The translations under genes and the position numbers were made by a program. This document shows, piece after piece, positions 4,443 through 10,355 of a stretch of 20,000 nucleotides of DNA (position 1 is the first letter of the stretch; every line of letters starts with the position of its first letter). The notes under the pieces were generated by a model that had not been told where the DNA came from, ran no database searches, and saw nothing but the letters and a program-made list of their open reading frames with translations. Source of the stretch: an uncultured virus (IMG/VR IMGVR_UViG_3300006072_000005) (Duplodnaviria; Heunggongvirae; Uroviricota; Caudoviricetes); the IMG/VR virus record IMGVR_UViG_3300006072_000005, one strand, 5' to 3'.

Positions 4443-4460
4443 TATTCAATTCCTGTAAGA

Positions 4461-4468
4461 TATTTATC
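4461..4468 (-). promoter_or_regulatory. Late-promoter-like GATAAATA
   Basis: Plus-strand TATTTATC, 19 nt upstream of ATG 4442. Confidence 0.6.
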
Positions 4469-4478
4469 AAGTCATTTA

Positions 4479-4498
4479 AGAAGAACTTGCGTTCTTCT
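4479..4498 (-). other. Perfect 8-bp hairpin with GCAA loop (possible terminator or RNA 3' end)
   Basis: Minus strand reads AGAAGAAC-GCAA-GTTCTTCT; there is no long U-tract after it. Confidence 0.5.
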
Positions 4499-4562
4499 AT
4501 TCTTCGCTTTCGCTCGAACTATTAAGGATTAGTTAACAACACTTATAACGCGAAGCGTTTAA

Positions 4563-4935
4563 GATATTATCCAGATCGTTCAGTCACACTTTGCCCTGGC
4601 GGGCAAAATGACAAACATTATCCGAGTCGAACATGCTCACTCTTACGTTTTGGCATTACAGTGGCGGTCATCCGGTACCACGAGCCAAGTCTTTATATGA
4701 CGGCAGTCTAATAAACAACGTAAAACGTTTATTAAACCCGAGGTTTCTCTCCTCTCTTTTAGCCTGTAAAATATATTTTCTTGCTGATCAAACGGGTTTA
4801 TTCATAGGCATATCCCATCCGCGTCCTGTAAAGGATAGTGATCCAGCTACTCTGCGCCAAGCAGAGATTCCTTGCCGCCACACATCAGAGCGGATTCAGG
4901 GCACAATACTATCGCCTGTGCGGGCTTATTTGGCG
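4563..4935 (-). ncRNA. Candidate large structured non-coding RNA, family not recognised
   Basis: GC-richer intergenic region with about ten stems found by eye and two possible loop pseudoknots. Stem extensions work as G-U pairs only on the minus strand. Boundaries are approximate. Confidence 0.6.
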
Positions 4936-5379
4936 TTATTTTGCCTGGTTTTCTTGAAGTTTGCGAATATGCGAACCATGTACACGCACTTGAATATGAC
5001 CATTATAATAGTCATTTGATTCTAAAACTCTGCGTGAAAATTGTTCTCTAGCCTCTATATAACTGCATTCTGCCTTGCTTCGACAGAGAAACAGTATCTC
5101 TCTTGTAAAATTTTCTGTGCCTAATGCCGTAACATCCTTGCTTAATTCTGGGCTTGAACCATAATATTCCCGCCAGTCTGAGTCAATTTTGCTACGAATT
5201 TTCTTTTTTTTCTTGTTGCCGTTCTTTAATTTTACTGTCTTGTATGTGGTTTTTGAGAATTTAGCTAGTTTTTTGCCTATGTACATGCGACCGTTAGTAG
5301 TGTTTGTTATGATATAAACAAATCCTATACAGTCTTCTGGTAGTGTTTCTATTGGTTGAGATTGATAAGTCCAAGACAT
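4936..5379 (-). CDS. Short single-domain GIY-YIG endonuclease (endonuclease II/Seg-like, 147 aa)
   Basis: GFVYIITNTTNGRMYIGKK motif, Y.GSS, F.REIL, a catalytic-type Glu in YIEAREQ and a YYN motif. Confidence 0.9.
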   Translation of the reverse strand: MSWTYQSQPIETLPEDCIGFVYIITNTTNGRMYIGKKLAKFSKTTYKTVKLKNGNKKKKKIRSKIDSDWREYYGSSPELSKDVTALGTENFTREILFLCRSKAECSYIEAREQFSRRVLESNDYYNGHIQVRVHGSHIRKLQENQAK

Positions 5380-5661: not shown

Positions 5662-7432
5662 GTATCTCTAAATCGTTTGCATAGCTGGTAAAACCGTTTT
5701 CTTTGATAACTCTCAGTACATTGTTTACACGGCCTATCAGCTCTTCCTTGTGACTGATCAAGAATATGTTTTTCTTGCGTTCACGACCCATCTTTTTCAG
5801 TATGCCCAGGGCACCTTCTACTCCTGAAGGATCTAGTCCGTTGTCTATGAGCTCGTCAACAAACAGCAAATTAATACTTTGATATAGACTTTCCCATACA
5901 TCACGGAAAGCCCACGACAAGCCCAGTATGAGTCTATTGCGTTCGCCTCGACTTAGATTATCAAAATCTAAATCTTGCCCCAGCTGTGTGATTAAGACCG
6001 TCAAGTCGTTTTGGAATGTAACTGTGTGTGGTAACCCCAGCTTGTCCAAGTAATAGGTCAAGCGATTGTTTAAGTATGCTAGGTTTTGATCTATAATCTT
6101 TTTGCGAATAAATGAATCTTTTGATGTCAGCAATTTCAACAAGAACTCTTGATGATCCTTCAAGCGAGTCAGCTCATTGACCAAGTCCCAAGAAATTTCC
6201 TGCATGGCAGTCATACGCAGTTCTTCAATTTGCTCTTGATACGGATCAGTTTCACCCGCTTTGATAGTCAACTGTGTTTCAAGAGTTTTTAAGTTGTTTT
6301 GATGTTTAAGAGTCTGCTCCACGCTGTCATAGTACGTTGAAGGACGTTGAGTCAGCTCACCCAGGGTAGCAATTTCGGCTTGTATTTTTGACAAATCCTT
6401 AGTGACCTTGTCGAAATACTTTCGGGCCTCGTCAAGGTGCCCTTGTGCTGTTGATGTCATTTCTTCATGCTTGTGATCATGTAGCTCTTGTTCACATGCG
6501 TGACAGGTCTTGTTAGCCAACTTGACGAGCTCGCCGTCGTACTTCGTGACGCTTCGCTCCGCTTGTGCTATCGCACTTTCGAGCGTTGCACGCTCTTTAT
6601 TTAGGCTTTTCAGCTTCGCTGACTTCTCGTCATACACTTTGAGCTCCGCATGCTTCGCAAGCTCAGCGTCAATATCTACGTCCTCCAATTCGACAATGGC
6701 TCTGCCCATCTTTTCTAGCTCTTGAGTATGTTGATTACCCCAAGCCATTTGTTTGGTTAGCAAACTATCAATACTTAATTGTATTTTTTCGTTGCTTTTC
6801 TTTGTAGCTTCGAGATTGGCAGTCTCTTGTGTAATAGCATCTTTAGTTTCTTTAACTTGTTCTTTAAGAGTTTCTGCTTTTTCACTTAGTAATGTAATAC
6901 CCAACAACTGTTCAATGATAGCACGTTGGTCGTTAGCCCGCATACTTAAGAAAGGTTCTGTATAAGTGTTAAGAGCAACAATATGTTTGAACATATCGTG
7001 GCTCATGCCCAGCAAGTCATCTAAGTCCTTCTGGGTTTCACGCATATCTCCTTGAGCATCGTCTGTTTCGTCTGTTTCTTGCTCTTGGTCATCAATAAAA
7101 AACTTTAATATGTTAGGTTTACGCCCACGTTCTATACGATAGAGAACACCATTTTTTTCAAATGTAAGTGTAACCAACATACCTTTGGCGTTAATCTTAT
7201 TGATAAGATTATCTTTTTTAATGTTAGTGAGTGCAATACCGTAAAGTGCATAACTTAAAGCATTTACAATGGTTGTCTTACCTGTACCGTTACGACTTCC
7301 GCTATCATCACCGCCTTGATCTAAATTCTCACCTAATACGAGTGTTAAATTTTCTTTACCAAAGTCTACAGCTTGAGTCTGGTTGCCCACACTCATGAAG
7401 TTACGTACTGTTAGTTCTTTTATTATAATCAT
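5654..7432 (-). CDS. Recombination endonuclease ATPase subunit, T4 gp46 / SbcC / Rad50 family
   Basis: VRNFMS N-terminus, Walker A NGTGKTT, coiled coil with CHAC zinc hook, LSRGE signature, Walker B LLFVDE, and ISH H-loop. Confidence 0.95.
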   Translation of the reverse strand: MIIIKELTVRNFMSVGNQTQAVDFGKENLTLVLGENLDQGGDDSGSRNGTGKTTIVNALSYALYGIALTNIKKDNLINKINAKGMLVTLTFEKNGVLYRIERGRKPNILKFFIDDQEQETDETDDAQGDMRETQKDLDDLLGMSHDMFKHIVALNTYTEPFLSMRANDQRAIIEQLLGITLLSEKAETLKEQVKETKDAITQETANLEATKKSNEKIQLSIDSLLTKQMAWGNQHTQELEKMGRAIVELEDVDIDAELAKHAELKVYDEKSAKLKSLNKERATLESAIAQAERSVTKYDGELVKLANKTCHACEQELHDHKHEEMTSTAQGHLDEARKYFDKVTKDLSKIQAEIATLGELTQRPSTYYDSVEQTLKHQNNLKTLETQLTIKAGETDPYQEQIEELRMTAMQEISWDLVNELTRLKDHQEFLLKLLTSKDSFIRKKIIDQNLAYLNNRLTYYLDKLGLPHTVTFQNDLTVLITQLGQDLDFDNLSRGERNRLILGLSWAFRDVWESLYQSINLLFVDELIDNGLDPSGVEGALGILKKMGRERKKNIFLISHKEELIGRVNNVLRVIKENGFTSYANDLEIHE

Positions 7433-8442
7433 AGGTTACTGTAAATCGATAGTAGTGTATTTTTGTCGTAGGTGTCTGAATCAATGCTGACAATTTGATT
7501 ACTGACAATTTGATCAACACTTTCAAAACTTTGAATATCTATATTAGTGTTAATTTCGATTTCTTTCTTTTCAGCTATCAATGTAAGTTCTCTGATATTG
7601 TAGTCTGCAATGAATTTTTCTTTGATAAAACTTGCTTCTTCAAAACTAATATCAATGTCTAATGCAACACGAAGATGTTGTCTAGGCAGAATAATTTCAT
7701 CGGCACGATCAATCAGTTCACTTAATTTAAGAGTTCGATATGTAGGTTGTCCAGGCCAGCTATGATATACAGGTTGTCCACCCCACTCCAATATCATCAT
7801 ACCACGTTCATCATCCCATGCATCCGAATAGTTGTGCGGGAACGCATTGCCAATATAAACCATGTTTTCATTTTGTTGACGTTTGTGGAAATGTCCACTA
7901 AACCCTAATTCAAAACCTTTAAATGCGTCAACTTGTAGTTCTCCGTGATCCGGCATTTGCACCATGGCATTCATAAAAAATTTAGGAAGTTCAAAATGTC
8001 CAAAGCAATATTTGCCTGTACGTTTGTTTATGTTTTTCCATTCTTCTCCCACCAACCACGGATAAAGGGTGACATCTCCAATAGTAGTAGGCTCGTGTAT
8101 GACAGTAACACCAGGAATGTATTTTCCAAATTCCACAGAGTGTATGTCTCGTTTGTCTTTGTAATACAAATCATGATTACCAGGAAAGAAATAGAAGTTG
8201 TTAAACGCCTGACCCAACTTTTCCAAGGCCCTAAGGCTATAATCCATTGTAGTAATGTTAAGGCTATTACGGTTATGGTGCCAATCACCCATAAAGATAC
8301 CTGTATCACAACCTTCCTCCTTTGCTTTAGCGATATACCAATCCACAAATTCCTCACAATCTTGATTGTGAATTGATGAATTACTTTTAAGACCAAAATG
8401 TATGTCAGTAAAAGCGGCAATCTTTTTAAACATATTACTCAC
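7429..8442 (-). CDS. Recombination endonuclease nuclease subunit, T4 gp47 / SbcD / Mre11 family
   Basis: Metallophosphoesterase motifs DIHFG, GDWHH, GNHD and SGHFH; ATGA overlap with gp46. Confidence 0.95.
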   Translation of the reverse strand: MSNMFKKIAAFTDIHFGLKSNSSIHNQDCEEFVDWYIAKAKEEGCDTGIFMGDWHHNRNSLNITTMDYSLRALEKLGQAFNNFYFFPGNHDLYYKDKRDIHSVEFGKYIPGVTVIHEPTTIGDVTLYPWLVGEEWKNINKRTGKYCFGHFELPKFFMNAMVQMPDHGELQVDAFKGFELGFSGHFHKRQQNENMVYIGNAFPHNYSDAWDDERGMMILEWGGQPVYHSWPGQPTYRTLKLSELIDRADEIILPRQHLRVALDIDISFEEASFIKEKFIADYNIRELTLIAEKKEIEINTNIDIQSFESVDQIVSNQIVSIDSDTYDKNTLLSIYSNL

Positions 8443-9283
8443 TAGCAGTATCCTCGTTGTGTCGTTTTAATGCGTTTGCATGTTCACCTGCGCCAGTACG
8501 GCTATAACTAGGATTCATTCCGTTGATTTCCAGTATGTCGTCACGGATATTTTGATTGCGTTTTTCTATATTAATAACACGAACAAAGCTATTAGTAACA
8601 GCCGCAGTAAAATACGCAAAAGGATTGTCTGATTTCGATTCATCAAATTGTAGTCCTATCTGTGTAAGTTGCAAAATAGCCTGACCTTTCATTTCGTCAT
8701 TATATGTGTACCCACGAACGTTACCCCGAGTAGCATAACGCTCACATAATTTTAACATCATACGAGCTAAGGTGTTAGTTATTTGGCCCGCATTTTTGTC
8801 AAAATGACCAGTCTTCAATCCACCTTTCCAATGACTTTTACCAACACATATGAGTTCATCTTCGTCATTAAATTTCCAATGTTGGAAAGGAGGAAAATTA
8901 ACCTTATCACGGTGATCTGCAAGACTCTTTGGATTTTTCTTACGTGTATTGTTAAGTGGAATATGATCAAATGTCATGATCCTGAAGACTACATCTGTCT
9001 TTGGAATTTTTTTATAATCAATTTCGCAGTCGGCTTGTTTAATTTTTTCTCCGCCCTTTTTACGAGCGGCATAATCGGTGTCTCCAATACGTTTGGCACG
9101 ATTACGTTTGGCTTCTGCAATAGTTCTAATATTAATTTTATCTACGCTGGGCAGGATTATATCGTATTGATGATATTCTGGTTTGGAAAATACACAATAA
9201 CTACTTTTTGATTTGTGTATTTCGGCCAACATGTCTTTGTTGTTTAAGTAATTTACTTTGGGCGGGTTTGCTGGTATTGTCAT
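8435..9283 (-). CDS. Late-transcription sigma factor, T4 gp55-like (282 aa)
   Basis: NYLNNKDML N-terminus and N.RGYTY.DEM......L......FD..KS.NPFAYFT....NSF...I..EK motif. Its position upstream of gp47-gp46 matches T4-like phages. Confidence 0.88.
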   Translation of the reverse strand: MTIPANPPKVNYLNNKDMLAEIHKSKSSYCVFSKPEYHQYDIILPSVDKINIRTIAEAKRNRAKRIGDTDYAARKKGGEKIKQADCEIDYKKIPKTDVVFRIMTFDHIPLNNTRKKNPKSLADHRDKVNFPPFQHWKFNDEDELICVGKSHWKGGLKTGHFDKNAGQITNTLARMMLKLCERYATRGNVRGYTYNDEMKGQAILQLTQIGLQFDESKSDNPFAYFTAAVTNSFVRVINIEKRNQNIRDDILEINGMNPSYSRTGAGEHANALKRHNEDTASE

Positions 9284-9306: not shown

Positions 9307-9335
9307 ATTATAAACTACGCACTTTATAAAGTCAA
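9307..9335 (-). promoter_or_regulatory. Host sigma70-type promoter TTGACT-N17-TATAAT for the gp55-gp47-gp46 operon
   Basis: -35 is plus-strand AGTCAA at 9330-9335, -10 is plus-strand ATTATA at 9307-9312, with a 17-nt spacer. Confidence 0.8.
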
Positions 9336-9342
9336 CTAAATA
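9335..9342 (+). promoter_or_regulatory. Late-promoter-like ACTAAATA for the baseplate operon
   Basis: TAAATA core about 24 nt upstream of ATG 9366, with an AAGGA ribosome-binding site in between. Confidence 0.6.
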
Positions 9343-9365
9343 TTATACCAAAAAGGAATAATATT

Positions 9366-10355
9366 ATGGCCGTAACAGGAGCAACAGCACAGGTACAACA
9401 AGGCGCAAGTGCTAATTCGATTGGATCTGCTATCAATAAAGCAGGTAAAATCACTGCATTGGCAGGAGCGGTGGGTAATGCCGCCAATTTATTAAGTTCT
9501 GTACGTTCGATAAGTTTACCAACTGCTGGTGAATCAGTAGGCGATATATACGCCGCTTCGGCCGCTTTTACTGATTTGGAAGGCGCCCATGAATGGCGTG
9601 TTCGTTTAAGCATACCTACCTGGCCTAGTTTTAGAACCAGTGTAGTAATGAAACCATTAATCGATGCAGGCGGCATGATTTTTCCTTACACTCCAGACAT
9701 TAATATAACTGCACAGGCAAAGTACACACCTTTGAATATTCCGCATACAAATTACAATTTCCATGCATATCAAAATAGTGATCCTGGACAAATTCAGATT
9801 ACTGCTCCAATGTATGTTGAGGATCAAACACAAGGCTTGTACTGGATTGCAGCCATGCATTATTTAAGAAGTCTTACCAAAATGTTTAACGGAAATGATC
9901 CAAAGGCTGGCAATCCTCCACCGATTGTAAATTTTAATGCGTATGGTCAGTATGTGTTTAACAATGTACCAGTTGCAGTTACATCATTTCAAACTCAGTT
10001 GGCAAAAGATTGTGATTATATCAGTGTACCAGTAGTCAACAGTGCCGCTAGTATAGCACAAGGTGCCGCAGATGCAGTCGGTGGAATAACAGATGCACTT
10101 GGTTCAATCTTTCCAGGAGCGGGAGATGTTACTGCCGGAATAGGAAGTATTGCAGGCGGTGTTGGACAAGTGGCCGCCCTTGCAGGATTATTTGGAACTG
10201 GCGGGTCTATCCCAGGAGGATATACTCATGTTCCTGTAAAAAGTACATTTACAGTTACACTACAGCCAATGTATGCAAGAAATACAAGTCAAAGATTTAG
10301 CCTTGACAGATTTGTTGAAGGCGGATATCTAAACACAACTCCGGGATACATTTAA
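9366..10355 (+). CDS. Probable baseplate/tail-tube initiator (gp48/gp54-like tube fold)
   Basis: IFPYTP.I......Y......H.NY....Y..S and G.PPP...F..YG......VP..V motifs typical of contractile-tail tube initiators; first gene of the baseplate cluster, before a LysM-type gene. Confidence 0.65.
   Translation: MAVTGATAQVQQGASANSIGSAINKAGKITALAGAVGNAANLLSSVRSISLPTAGESVGDIYAASAAFTDLEGAHEWRVRLSIPTWPSFRTSVVMKPLIDAGGMIFPYTPDINITAQAKYTPLNIPHTNYNFHAYQNSDPGQIQITAPMYVEDQTQGLYWIAAMHYLRSLTKMFNGNDPKAGNPPPIVNFNAYGQYVFNNVPVAVTSFQTQLAKDCDYISVPVVNSAASIAQGAADAVGGITDALGSIFPGAGDVTAGIGSIAGGVGQVAALAGLFGTGGSIPGGYTHVPVKSTFTVTLQPMYARNTSQRFSLDRFVEGGYLNTTPGYI

Follow-up and report, generated by a model that had tools for sequence, protein, structure and literature searches.

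The analysed window is a stretch of 20,000 nucleotides from the uncultured virus record IMGVR_UViG_3300006072_000005 of IMG/VR, and the subject of this work is a structured RNA which lies on the minus strand in a non-coding gap of the window and is classified, by its match to the Rfam model, as a member of the known Polynucleobacter-1 family (RF01718). A portal protein, gp46/gp47-like recombination nucleases, a late sigma factor and baseplate proteins are encoded in the window (Pfam, PHROG), and from this gene content the window is identified as DNA of a T4-like phage. The source of the phage was lake water, and the 20 sequencing runs listed for positions 4443-5379 are DNA runs from lakes or fresh water; the surrounding IMG/VR record has 153.7 kb with a GC content of 37.7% and is 42% complete. 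The gap, at positions 4443-4935, has 493 nt and is flanked by a GIY-YIG nuclease gene of 147 aa and by an open reading frame (ORF) of 294 aa, both on the minus strand. The initial annotation had singled it out as the only long gap of the window and as richer in GC, and both observations hold: the runner-up between long ORFs has 82 nt, and the GC fraction is 0.461 at positions 4563-4935 and 0.366 in the window. No tRNA or tmRNA was found by ARAGORN in the window or in the 153.7-kb record, a plus-strand ORF of 128 aa across the gap has no family match in Pfam or PHROG, and the gap sequence gave no blastn match among 50,697 phage records.

The family search was done with cmscan. RF01718 matched positions 4926-4781 on the minus strand with 69.5 bits against a gathering score of 37 (E 3e-13), and the match spans the whole model, positions 1-141 of 141. 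The element had at first been called unrecognised, and a strong Rfam match had been named beforehand as the outcome that would remove its novelty; this is the outcome obtained. RF01718 is the sole Rfam match at gathering score, and the earlier statement was that the element could not be matched by eye to tRNA, tmRNA, RNase P or group I/II introns; and at E<=10 it was joined only by CRISPR-DR57 and STnc390 at chance level (E about 0.5). The element had also been likened to GOLLD and ROOL, which are large, multi-domain, pseudoknotted RNAs carried by phages, with no known function. The window RNA shares all of these structural features, but it is smaller, it has no tRNA nearby and neither family was matched in Rfam at gathering score or at E<=10, and the likeness is one of analogy only.

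The Polynucleobacter-1 motif was described in 2010 (Weinberg et al., Genome Biol 11:R31; PMC2864571). Its row in Table 1 of that paper has 'y' for RNA, 'y' for cis-regulatory, '?' for switch and 'Burkholderiales, fresh water/estuary' for taxa. The published seed alignment contains 16 sequences, most of them reaching far past the 141 positions of Rfam, and its 3' extension is made up of AGGCUAA, two hairpins, a pseudoknot between the loop of the second hairpin and the 3' tail, and the nested stems GGUACCGG...ACCGCC.CUGUAAUGC (PMC2864571). Every element of this extension is present in the window, down to about 4642, and the junction sequences of the family (CCCU.AA, GGAA and CACUAUCC..GGA) are nearly invariant in the homologs. 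The window RNA has the 5' domain of the family over the full model, the same long 3' domain with its pseudoknot and the same freshwater habitat, and the Rfam model covers 141 of its roughly 460 conserved nt. The T4-like phage setting and the nuclease neighbour are not mentioned in the examined parts of PMC2864571, and a second pseudoknot (PK2) and a tail with twin blocks are absent from the Rfam structure line and from the seed structure lines examined. A literature search by the name Polynucleobacter-1 gave nothing beyond the 2010 description; among the matches listed for GIY-YIG with structured RNA and phage, and for tyrosine recombinase with bridge RNA, none was on this RNA.

Relatives were collected from IMG/VR, where a 26-nt motif of the 3' part occurs in at least 120 contigs. 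The extracted elements number 112 (111 loci and the window), 103 of them unique, with a median identity to the window of 57%, and RF01718 matched over its full model with 60-120 bits in all nine of the metagenomic relatives tested. For the structure, 55 copies less than 80% identical were aligned with MAFFT, which ignores structure and in places shifts the clade of the window by one column. Because of these slips a duplex test was added, in which the duplex of a segment with its own partner segment was compared with the cross duplex, formed with the partner segment of other sequences, and the own duplex was counted as better if the gain was above 0.5 kcal/mol.

From these 55 copies RNAalifold recovers P1, P3-P6, HpB and the three nested 3' stems, and 34 of its 51 pairs are changed on both sides. 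Of the alignment cells, 73.8% are paired for the tested structure versus 28-40% for slid controls. All six helices P1-P6 are complementary in the window and covary across the homologs. The core, from 4934 to about 4642, is on this evidence composed of two multi-helix domains, each predicted to be locked by a covarying pseudoknot. The 3' domain has the published one (PK3), with 98.1% of cells paired and compensatory changes in 7/7 pairs. The 5' domain has PK2, a pairing of loop 4856-4860 with 4930-4934 that the initial annotation had proposed: the own duplex has -7.60 kcal/mol against -4.62 for the cross duplex and is better in 46/53 (p 9e-10), with 71.7% of cells paired and 4/5 pairs changed on both sides. 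PK2, PK3 and P2 all covary, with none of 500 shuffles reaching the observed covariation, and three control segment pairs were flat in the duplex test (own better in 12/53, 20/55 and 21/52).

The other pairings proposed earlier fared differently. All nine stems listed at that time are complementary in the window and each matches a helix kept in the homologs; in the stem 4583-4596/4601-4612, here H11, the 7-bp core 4590-4596/4601-4607 is conserved and the rest is not. A pseudoknot of loop 4908-4913 with 4834-4839 found no support, with -1.26 kcal/mol for the own duplex and -1.34 for the cross duplex (better in 8/54), 35.1% of cells paired and 1/6 pairs changed on both sides, and an alternative pairing 4733-4740/4793-4800 showed no gain (own better in 16/55). 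Both were rejected as coincidences of this window which are not kept in homologs. The minus strand had been read correctly, as seen from the strand of the Rfam match and from folding z-scores of -2.96 (minus) and -2.32 (plus). The proposal of a functional structured RNA on that strand is supported by its presence in the phage contigs counted above, by the compensatory pairs and by the shuffles. The coordinates of all features are collected in the table below. As a separate observation, the linker between the RNA domains is longer in one relative (L065), by an insertion of about 40 nt with the sequence GGCGGGGUUUUCACCAGGGGUGUGAUAAAUCC.

Features of the RNA locus and of its flanks, listed 5' to 3' along the minus strand (RNA sense).
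Feature	Position	Strand	Evidence or remark
GIY-YIG nuclease gene, 147 aa, catalytic domain only	4936..5379	minus	PF19835 SegE_GIY-YIG, E 1e-34; phrog_447
PK2, 5' strand	4930..4934	minus	pairs with P3 loop 4856-4860; outside Rfam model
5' domain (RF01718 core)	4781..4926	minus	cmscan, complementarity, compensatory changes
P1	4901-4906/4916-4921	minus	own duplex better 52/54
P2, base	4875-4878/4890-4893	minus	whole P2: 83.5% of cells paired, 8/8 pairs changed on both sides
P3	4850-4855/4861-4866	minus	RNAalifold
P4	4784-4789/4840-4846	minus	own duplex better 55/55; 4783-4790/4839-4847 in the initial annotation
P5	4824-4826/4833-4835	minus	RNAalifold; missed in the initial annotation
P6	4791-4796/4814-4819	minus	RNAalifold; missed in the initial annotation
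Phage-type 3' domain	4642..4765	minus	2010 seed alignment including pseudoknot line; RNAalifold
AGGCUAA	4759-4765	minus	seed alignment element
HpA	4740-4743/4751-4754	minus	30 distinct complementary stem variants
HpB	4705-4716/4727-4738	minus	RNAalifold
PK3, published pseudoknot	4718-4724/4642-4648	minus	own duplex better 54/54; missed in the initial annotation
GUC/GAC stem	4699-4701/4689-4691	minus	missed in the initial annotation
P7	4684-4688/4650-4654	minus	own duplex better 54/55
P8	4678-4681/4661-4664	minus	RNAalifold
P9	4672-4674/4665-4667	minus	missed in the initial annotation
Block-1 hairpin	4633-4638/4613-4618	minus	block 1 in loop; weak, own duplex better 30/55
Twin block 1, ACUC+X, here ACUCGGAUAAUG	4616..4627	minus	preceded by GUGA
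H11, UUUGCCC-GCCA-GGGCAAA	4590..4607	minus	between twin blocks; own duplex better 50/55
Twin block 3, AUCU+X, here AUCUGGAUAAUA	4565..4576	minus	after GUGUGAC; 51 nt past block 1
Tail hairpin AACGC-UUC-GCGUU	4547-4559	minus	by eye, most of 40 loci
Tail hairpin GAGCGAAAGCGAA	about 4500-4519	minus	by eye, most of 40 loci
Tail hairpin AGAAGAAC-GCAA-GUUCUUCU	4479-4498	minus	by eye, most of 40 loci
GATAAATA	4461..4468	minus	about 20 nt before ATG of next gene
ORF, 294 aa	3558..4442	minus	no Pfam/PHROG match; homolog only in L020, a near-identical contig

The upstream side of the locus is nearly constant. Of the 73 loci whose upstream flank has 700 nt or more, 70 have a GIY-YIG homolog directly upstream on the same strand (141-159 aa, 55-90% identical). 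In the window a single nt separates the GIY-YIG stop codon (4936-4938) from the first pairing strand of the RNA. Measured from the 3' motif, the GIY-YIG ORF ends at a median of -252 (interquartile range -260 to -243) and the window has PK2 at -255 to -251 and the start of P1 at -242, which means that the ORF ends where the RNA's first pairing strands begin, or runs into them. No sigma-70-like site was found between the ORF and the RNA, the scan giving 2 sites versus 2.6 expected with neither beside the RNA start, and the number of terminator-like sites in the region is 0. Since the first pairing strand lies at or over the stop codon and no promoter-like site lies between, the RNA is most likely transcribed as the 3' continuation of the nuclease mRNA. 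It would most likely act as a stable folded RNA itself, be it a scaffold that binds a protein or ligand or a catalytic RNA. The core is followed by a conserved tail of hairpins and matched blocks down to about 4475. We consider it quite probable that the element is, in this sense, an RF01718 member on the minus strand and a stable folded RNA made in continuation of the nuclease mRNA.

The downstream side is variable, and it bears on a reading suggested by the 2010 table, in which the RNA is a cis-regulatory 5' leader (riboswitch or attenuator) of the gene that follows. The 'y' and '?' entries of Table 1 in PMC2864571 speak for it, as do the complex architecture with many invariant unpaired bases and the same-strand ORF which follows the RNA in 35 of 64 unique loci, counting the first ORF of 140 aa or more. 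The next ORF is, however, convergent in 26 of these loci (and absent in 3) and the downstream proteins form 15 unrelated clusters, which makes a leader role appear unlikely. A position in the 5' untranslated region, which is a proposed property of the cis-regulator and not a defining one, was not found in the family test. The 294-aa ORF of the window recurs only in the near-identical contig and is, on this distribution, not conserved as a partner of the RNA. Among 40 loci inspected, next genes on the same strand have their own ATAAATA after the tail; no terminator-like site was found in the region. The GATAAATA before the next gene in the window may be likened to a T4-type late promoter.

Conservation does not stop at the published 3' end and reaches about 170 nt past it, to about 4475. 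The further 3' conserved elements down to this point had been missed in the initial annotation. The order of this tail is GUGA..ACUC+X, H11, GUGUGAC..AUCU+X and three hairpins, where X is a variable word which is RGAURAW in phages. The hairpins between 4475 and 4559 are kept whatever the strand of the next gene (by eye, 40 loci). The variable positions of X are identical across both blocks in 98-99 of 100 phage homologs; among 92 unique sequences the four positions agree in 92, 92, 92 and 91 cases, with 47-84 expected under independence, and the CUC versus UCU difference beside X is fixed in 92/92. Position R has a mutual information of 1.00 with its twin and of at most 0.20 with the other columns from -262 to +300, and is identical between blocks in 99/100 sequences. 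A neighbour-joining tree of the upstream RNA has 27 changes of R for block 1 and 26 for block 3, compared with 23 for a typical variable column. Two RNAs, of L036 and L105, are 99.3% identical upstream, yet differ at R with G/G in one and A/A in the other; the same two RNAs also differ by a compensatory double change in PK3. By these counts the relation between the twin blocks is one of identity coupling and not of complementarity.

Several simple explanations of the blocks were tried and rejected. A general promoter was dismissed on the finding that the block motif is essentially confined to the RNA locus in the 153.7-kb record, and a small ORF or translational bypass on the 3.2-3.8 stop codons per 40 codons in every frame. 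A cis pairing partner was dismissed on the low mutual information elsewhere and on the lack of a consistently placed reverse complement; no position within +/-3 kb (51 phage loci) or +/-4 kb (25 bacterial loci) consistently holds a complement or an extra copy of X. The pairing between the two blocks that RNAalifold offers is due only to the near-palindromic motif and leaves the identity unexplained. An exact 16-nt complement of block 3 and its spacer occurs on the same strand in the gene of the 1146-aa tail sheath, outside the window (G000:C1 about 114693; L131:2694-2709). This complement is absent, with up to 4 mismatches allowed, in 4/4 other phages (a fifth record had no sheath match), so it is likely due to chance and the tail-sheath mRNA was rejected as a trans target.

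It is also conceivable that the tail (about 4475-4640), or the twin blocks together with H11, acts as DNA, in the form of repeated protein-binding or recombination sites whose identity is kept by short-tract conversion between repeats. The sameness of the blocks would fit direct repeats bound by one protein, or crossover regions, and an inverted repeat with a short spacer and flanking direct repeats resembles a recombinase site, and bacterial copies of the RNA adjoin a tyrosine recombinase. This is an improbable reading all the same: the fixed CUC/UCU difference beside X argues against simple conversion, H11 uses G-U pairs which fall on the minus (RNA-sense) strand, no recombinase was found in the phage loci examined, and the tail directly continues the covarying RNA. 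Requirements for matched sites exist in the overlap regions of recombination and in the take-off and landing codons of the T4 gene 60 bypass. Here too two sites about 50 nt apart flank a hairpin and are identical yet free to change, but no ORF spans the blocks and the recombinase is lacking in the phage loci examined.

The family was also surveyed in bacteria. A search with the published short form of the motif gave 38 copies in Polynucleobacter, Limnohabitans, Comamonadaceae and Burkholderiaceae, that is in freshwater Betaproteobacteria, and some of these genomes hold two copies which are 9-18 kb apart. About 500 nt of the bacterial RNA show conservation, within some 1 kb of non-coding DNA. 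Phage and bacterial copies have the 5' domain, PK2 and the twin-block module in common, and PK2 covaries in bacteria as well (CUACUG/CAGUAG, CUACCG/CGGUAG; by eye). The end module consists of GAACUC+X, a hairpin, GAAUCU+X and a GAGCG..GCGAA hairpin, with X = A[G/U]CGAAAG alike in both blocks; a few of 25 loci differ, at the 3' end or at one position. The motif of the phage 3' domain was found in 0/38 bacterial copies. Upstream of the RNA, 36/38 loci have a divergent DUF6641 gene; downstream, 15 of the 24 loci with enough flank have a tyrosine recombinase of 188-195 aa that consists of the catalytic domain alone. DUF6641 was rejected as a hidden nuclease, its hhalign probability versus the GIY-YIG alignment being 0.6%; its PDB sequence search gave nothing with E below 0.29, its model (pLDDT 85.8) had no Foldseek match at E<=0.001, and a literature search for 'DUF6641' found nothing.

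These copies raise the idea that the phage RNA was captured from, or is shared with, integrative elements of freshwater Betaproteobacterial hosts and has a role in conflicts of the phage with its host or with such an element, where it might, for instance, mimic or titrate the partner of the element RNA. It would agree with the common 5' domain, PK2 and twin-block module, with the place of the bacterial copies beside an integrase and DUF6641, and with the lake-water source of the phage. We hold it to be rather unlikely: its support is purely contextual, the middle domains differ, the phage 3'-domain motif is missing from the bacterial copies, and a DUF6641 gene was not found in the 42%-complete phage record.

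The genes on both sides also suggest that the RNA may be the scaffold or address partner of adjoining small DNA enzymes without DNA-binding domains, with X specifying, or having to match, nucleic-acid sites. A nuclease gene is upstream of the RNA in 73/73 phage loci, 70 of the GIY-YIG type and 3 of the PD-(D/E)XK type, and the bacterial recombinase is likewise a catalytic domain alone. The identical core of the twin blocks, in which R changed about 26-27 times and always in both, and the pair of nearly identical RNAs with G/G and A/A would fit such a partner. Even so it is of low probability, as neither a complement nor a copy of X is consistently placed in the flanks and the sheath complement is not kept in other phages. 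Locus L013 keeps the blocks despite its different nuclease, the GIY-YIG relatives of 429 isolates mostly follow nrdAB with no RF01718 in the three isolate loci scanned, and the tightest bacterial neighbour, DUF6641, has no nuclease likeness. A very improbable extension is a modular address RNA which serves whichever minimal DNA enzyme adjoins it, be it GIY-YIG, PD-(D/E)XK or tyrosine recombinase, and in which ACUC+X and AUCU+X are matched read-outs of one programmable word of 7-8 nt, identical at the two sites that are cut or exchanged. In a bolder variant the two copies of X may pair with each other in parallel, like with like.

Known systems in which an RNA lies beside a compact nuclease or recombinase gene are the HEARO/IscB omega RNA, the TnpB omega RNA and the IS110 bridge RNA, and the twin blocks with the same core recall the core shared by the two loops of the bridge RNA. 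The present locus differs in its enzymes (GIY-YIG, PD-(D/E)XK and tyrosine recombinase), in the lack of a guide-target match within +/-3 to 4 kb or in the sheath gene of other phages, and in having one copy at a fixed place per phage, and membership in these systems is not claimed.

For the stable folded RNA made in continuation of the nuclease mRNA, which is the reading we prefer, the opposing points are as follows. Strand, ends and co-transcription are deduced from sequence only, Table 1 of PMC2864571 scores the motif as a likely cis-regulator, and a same-strand gene does follow the RNA in 35/64 loci. Plain synteny in a single phage clade could account for the conserved adjacency of the nuclease gene, the twin blocks of the tail are left unexplained, and past block 3 the hairpins of the tail were assessed by eye only. 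Three readings are kept beside it, namely the leader, the enzyme partner and the phage-host element conflict, each of them of small probability.

RF01718 has been in Rfam since 2010 without a function, under a doubtful 'cis-regulatory' label. It is new that freshwater T4-like phages of a large clade carry the long form as standard, in a fixed position behind a nuclease gene, that the covarying PK2 ties the 5' end of the RNA to the region of the nuclease stop codon, and that the conserved RNA is about three times as long as the Rfam model. The module with the same variable word in two blocks, found in phages and bacteria, is also new and is invisible to ordinary tools for base-pair covariation. 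The rule of the twin blocks is the most unusual observation, and it provides a directly testable handle on a class of RNAs hitherto inaccessible to experiment.

The nuclease itself was analyzed further. The Pfam GIY-YIG catalytic domain occupies residues 3-129 of the window protein, and PDB sequence searches gave only 3r3p ('Mobile intron protein'), weakly (E 0.02-0.04). The protein does not appear to be a typical homing endonuclease, because it is nearly always present and has the catalytic domain alone; a Seg-type homing endonuclease beside its target was rejected on the same two grounds, as it is not sporadic and no DNA-binding domain follows the catalytic domain. Relatives with below 60% identity occur in 429 isolated phages, mostly Kyanoviridae, and this small family is often labelled 'NAD synthetase' in GenBank phage records and in PHROG 447. 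In 6/9 isolates inspected the gene follows the ribonucleotide reductase genes nrdA/nrdB, which is the place of T4 denA; identity with T4 endonuclease II (DenA) was rejected, this position being all that supports it. An Rfam scan of three isolate loci that carry the protein (Melnitz, ACP17 and S-SM2) gave no RF01718, so protein and RNA are not universally linked. A general rule of a GIY-YIG gene followed by RNA genes was rejected, with tRNAs downstream in only 2/9 sampled isolates (S-SM2 and S-H38). In Synechococcus phage S-SM2 (L124) positions 6129-6224 are a wcaG RNA (RF01761, 93 bits), and the Rfam tRNA matches sit 55 nt before the annotated coordinates of the record.

Some loci depart from the usual arrangement. 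In the three of the 73 loci without a GIY-YIG gene upstream, a PD-(D/E)XK endonuclease gene (PF24608) takes its place and abuts the RNA in L013. In L009 and L070 the PD-(D/E)XK gene is followed by an RNase H gene, then by a non-coding gap of about 390 nt and then by the RNA, and the RNA of these two loci is missing the twin blocks and H11. In L018 the end of the GIY-YIG ORF is about 1 kb farther upstream of the RNA than in most loci, which suggests that something is inserted between the gene and the RNA.

Elsewhere in the window, the minus-strand homolog of the late-transcription sigma factor at 8435-9283 (phrog_12791) has 282 aa and is longer than T4 gp55. A minus-strand ORF of 114 aa at 9332-9676 without a family match overlaps the start of a plus-strand structural gene of 329 aa at 9366-10355, so one of the two is probably not a gene.

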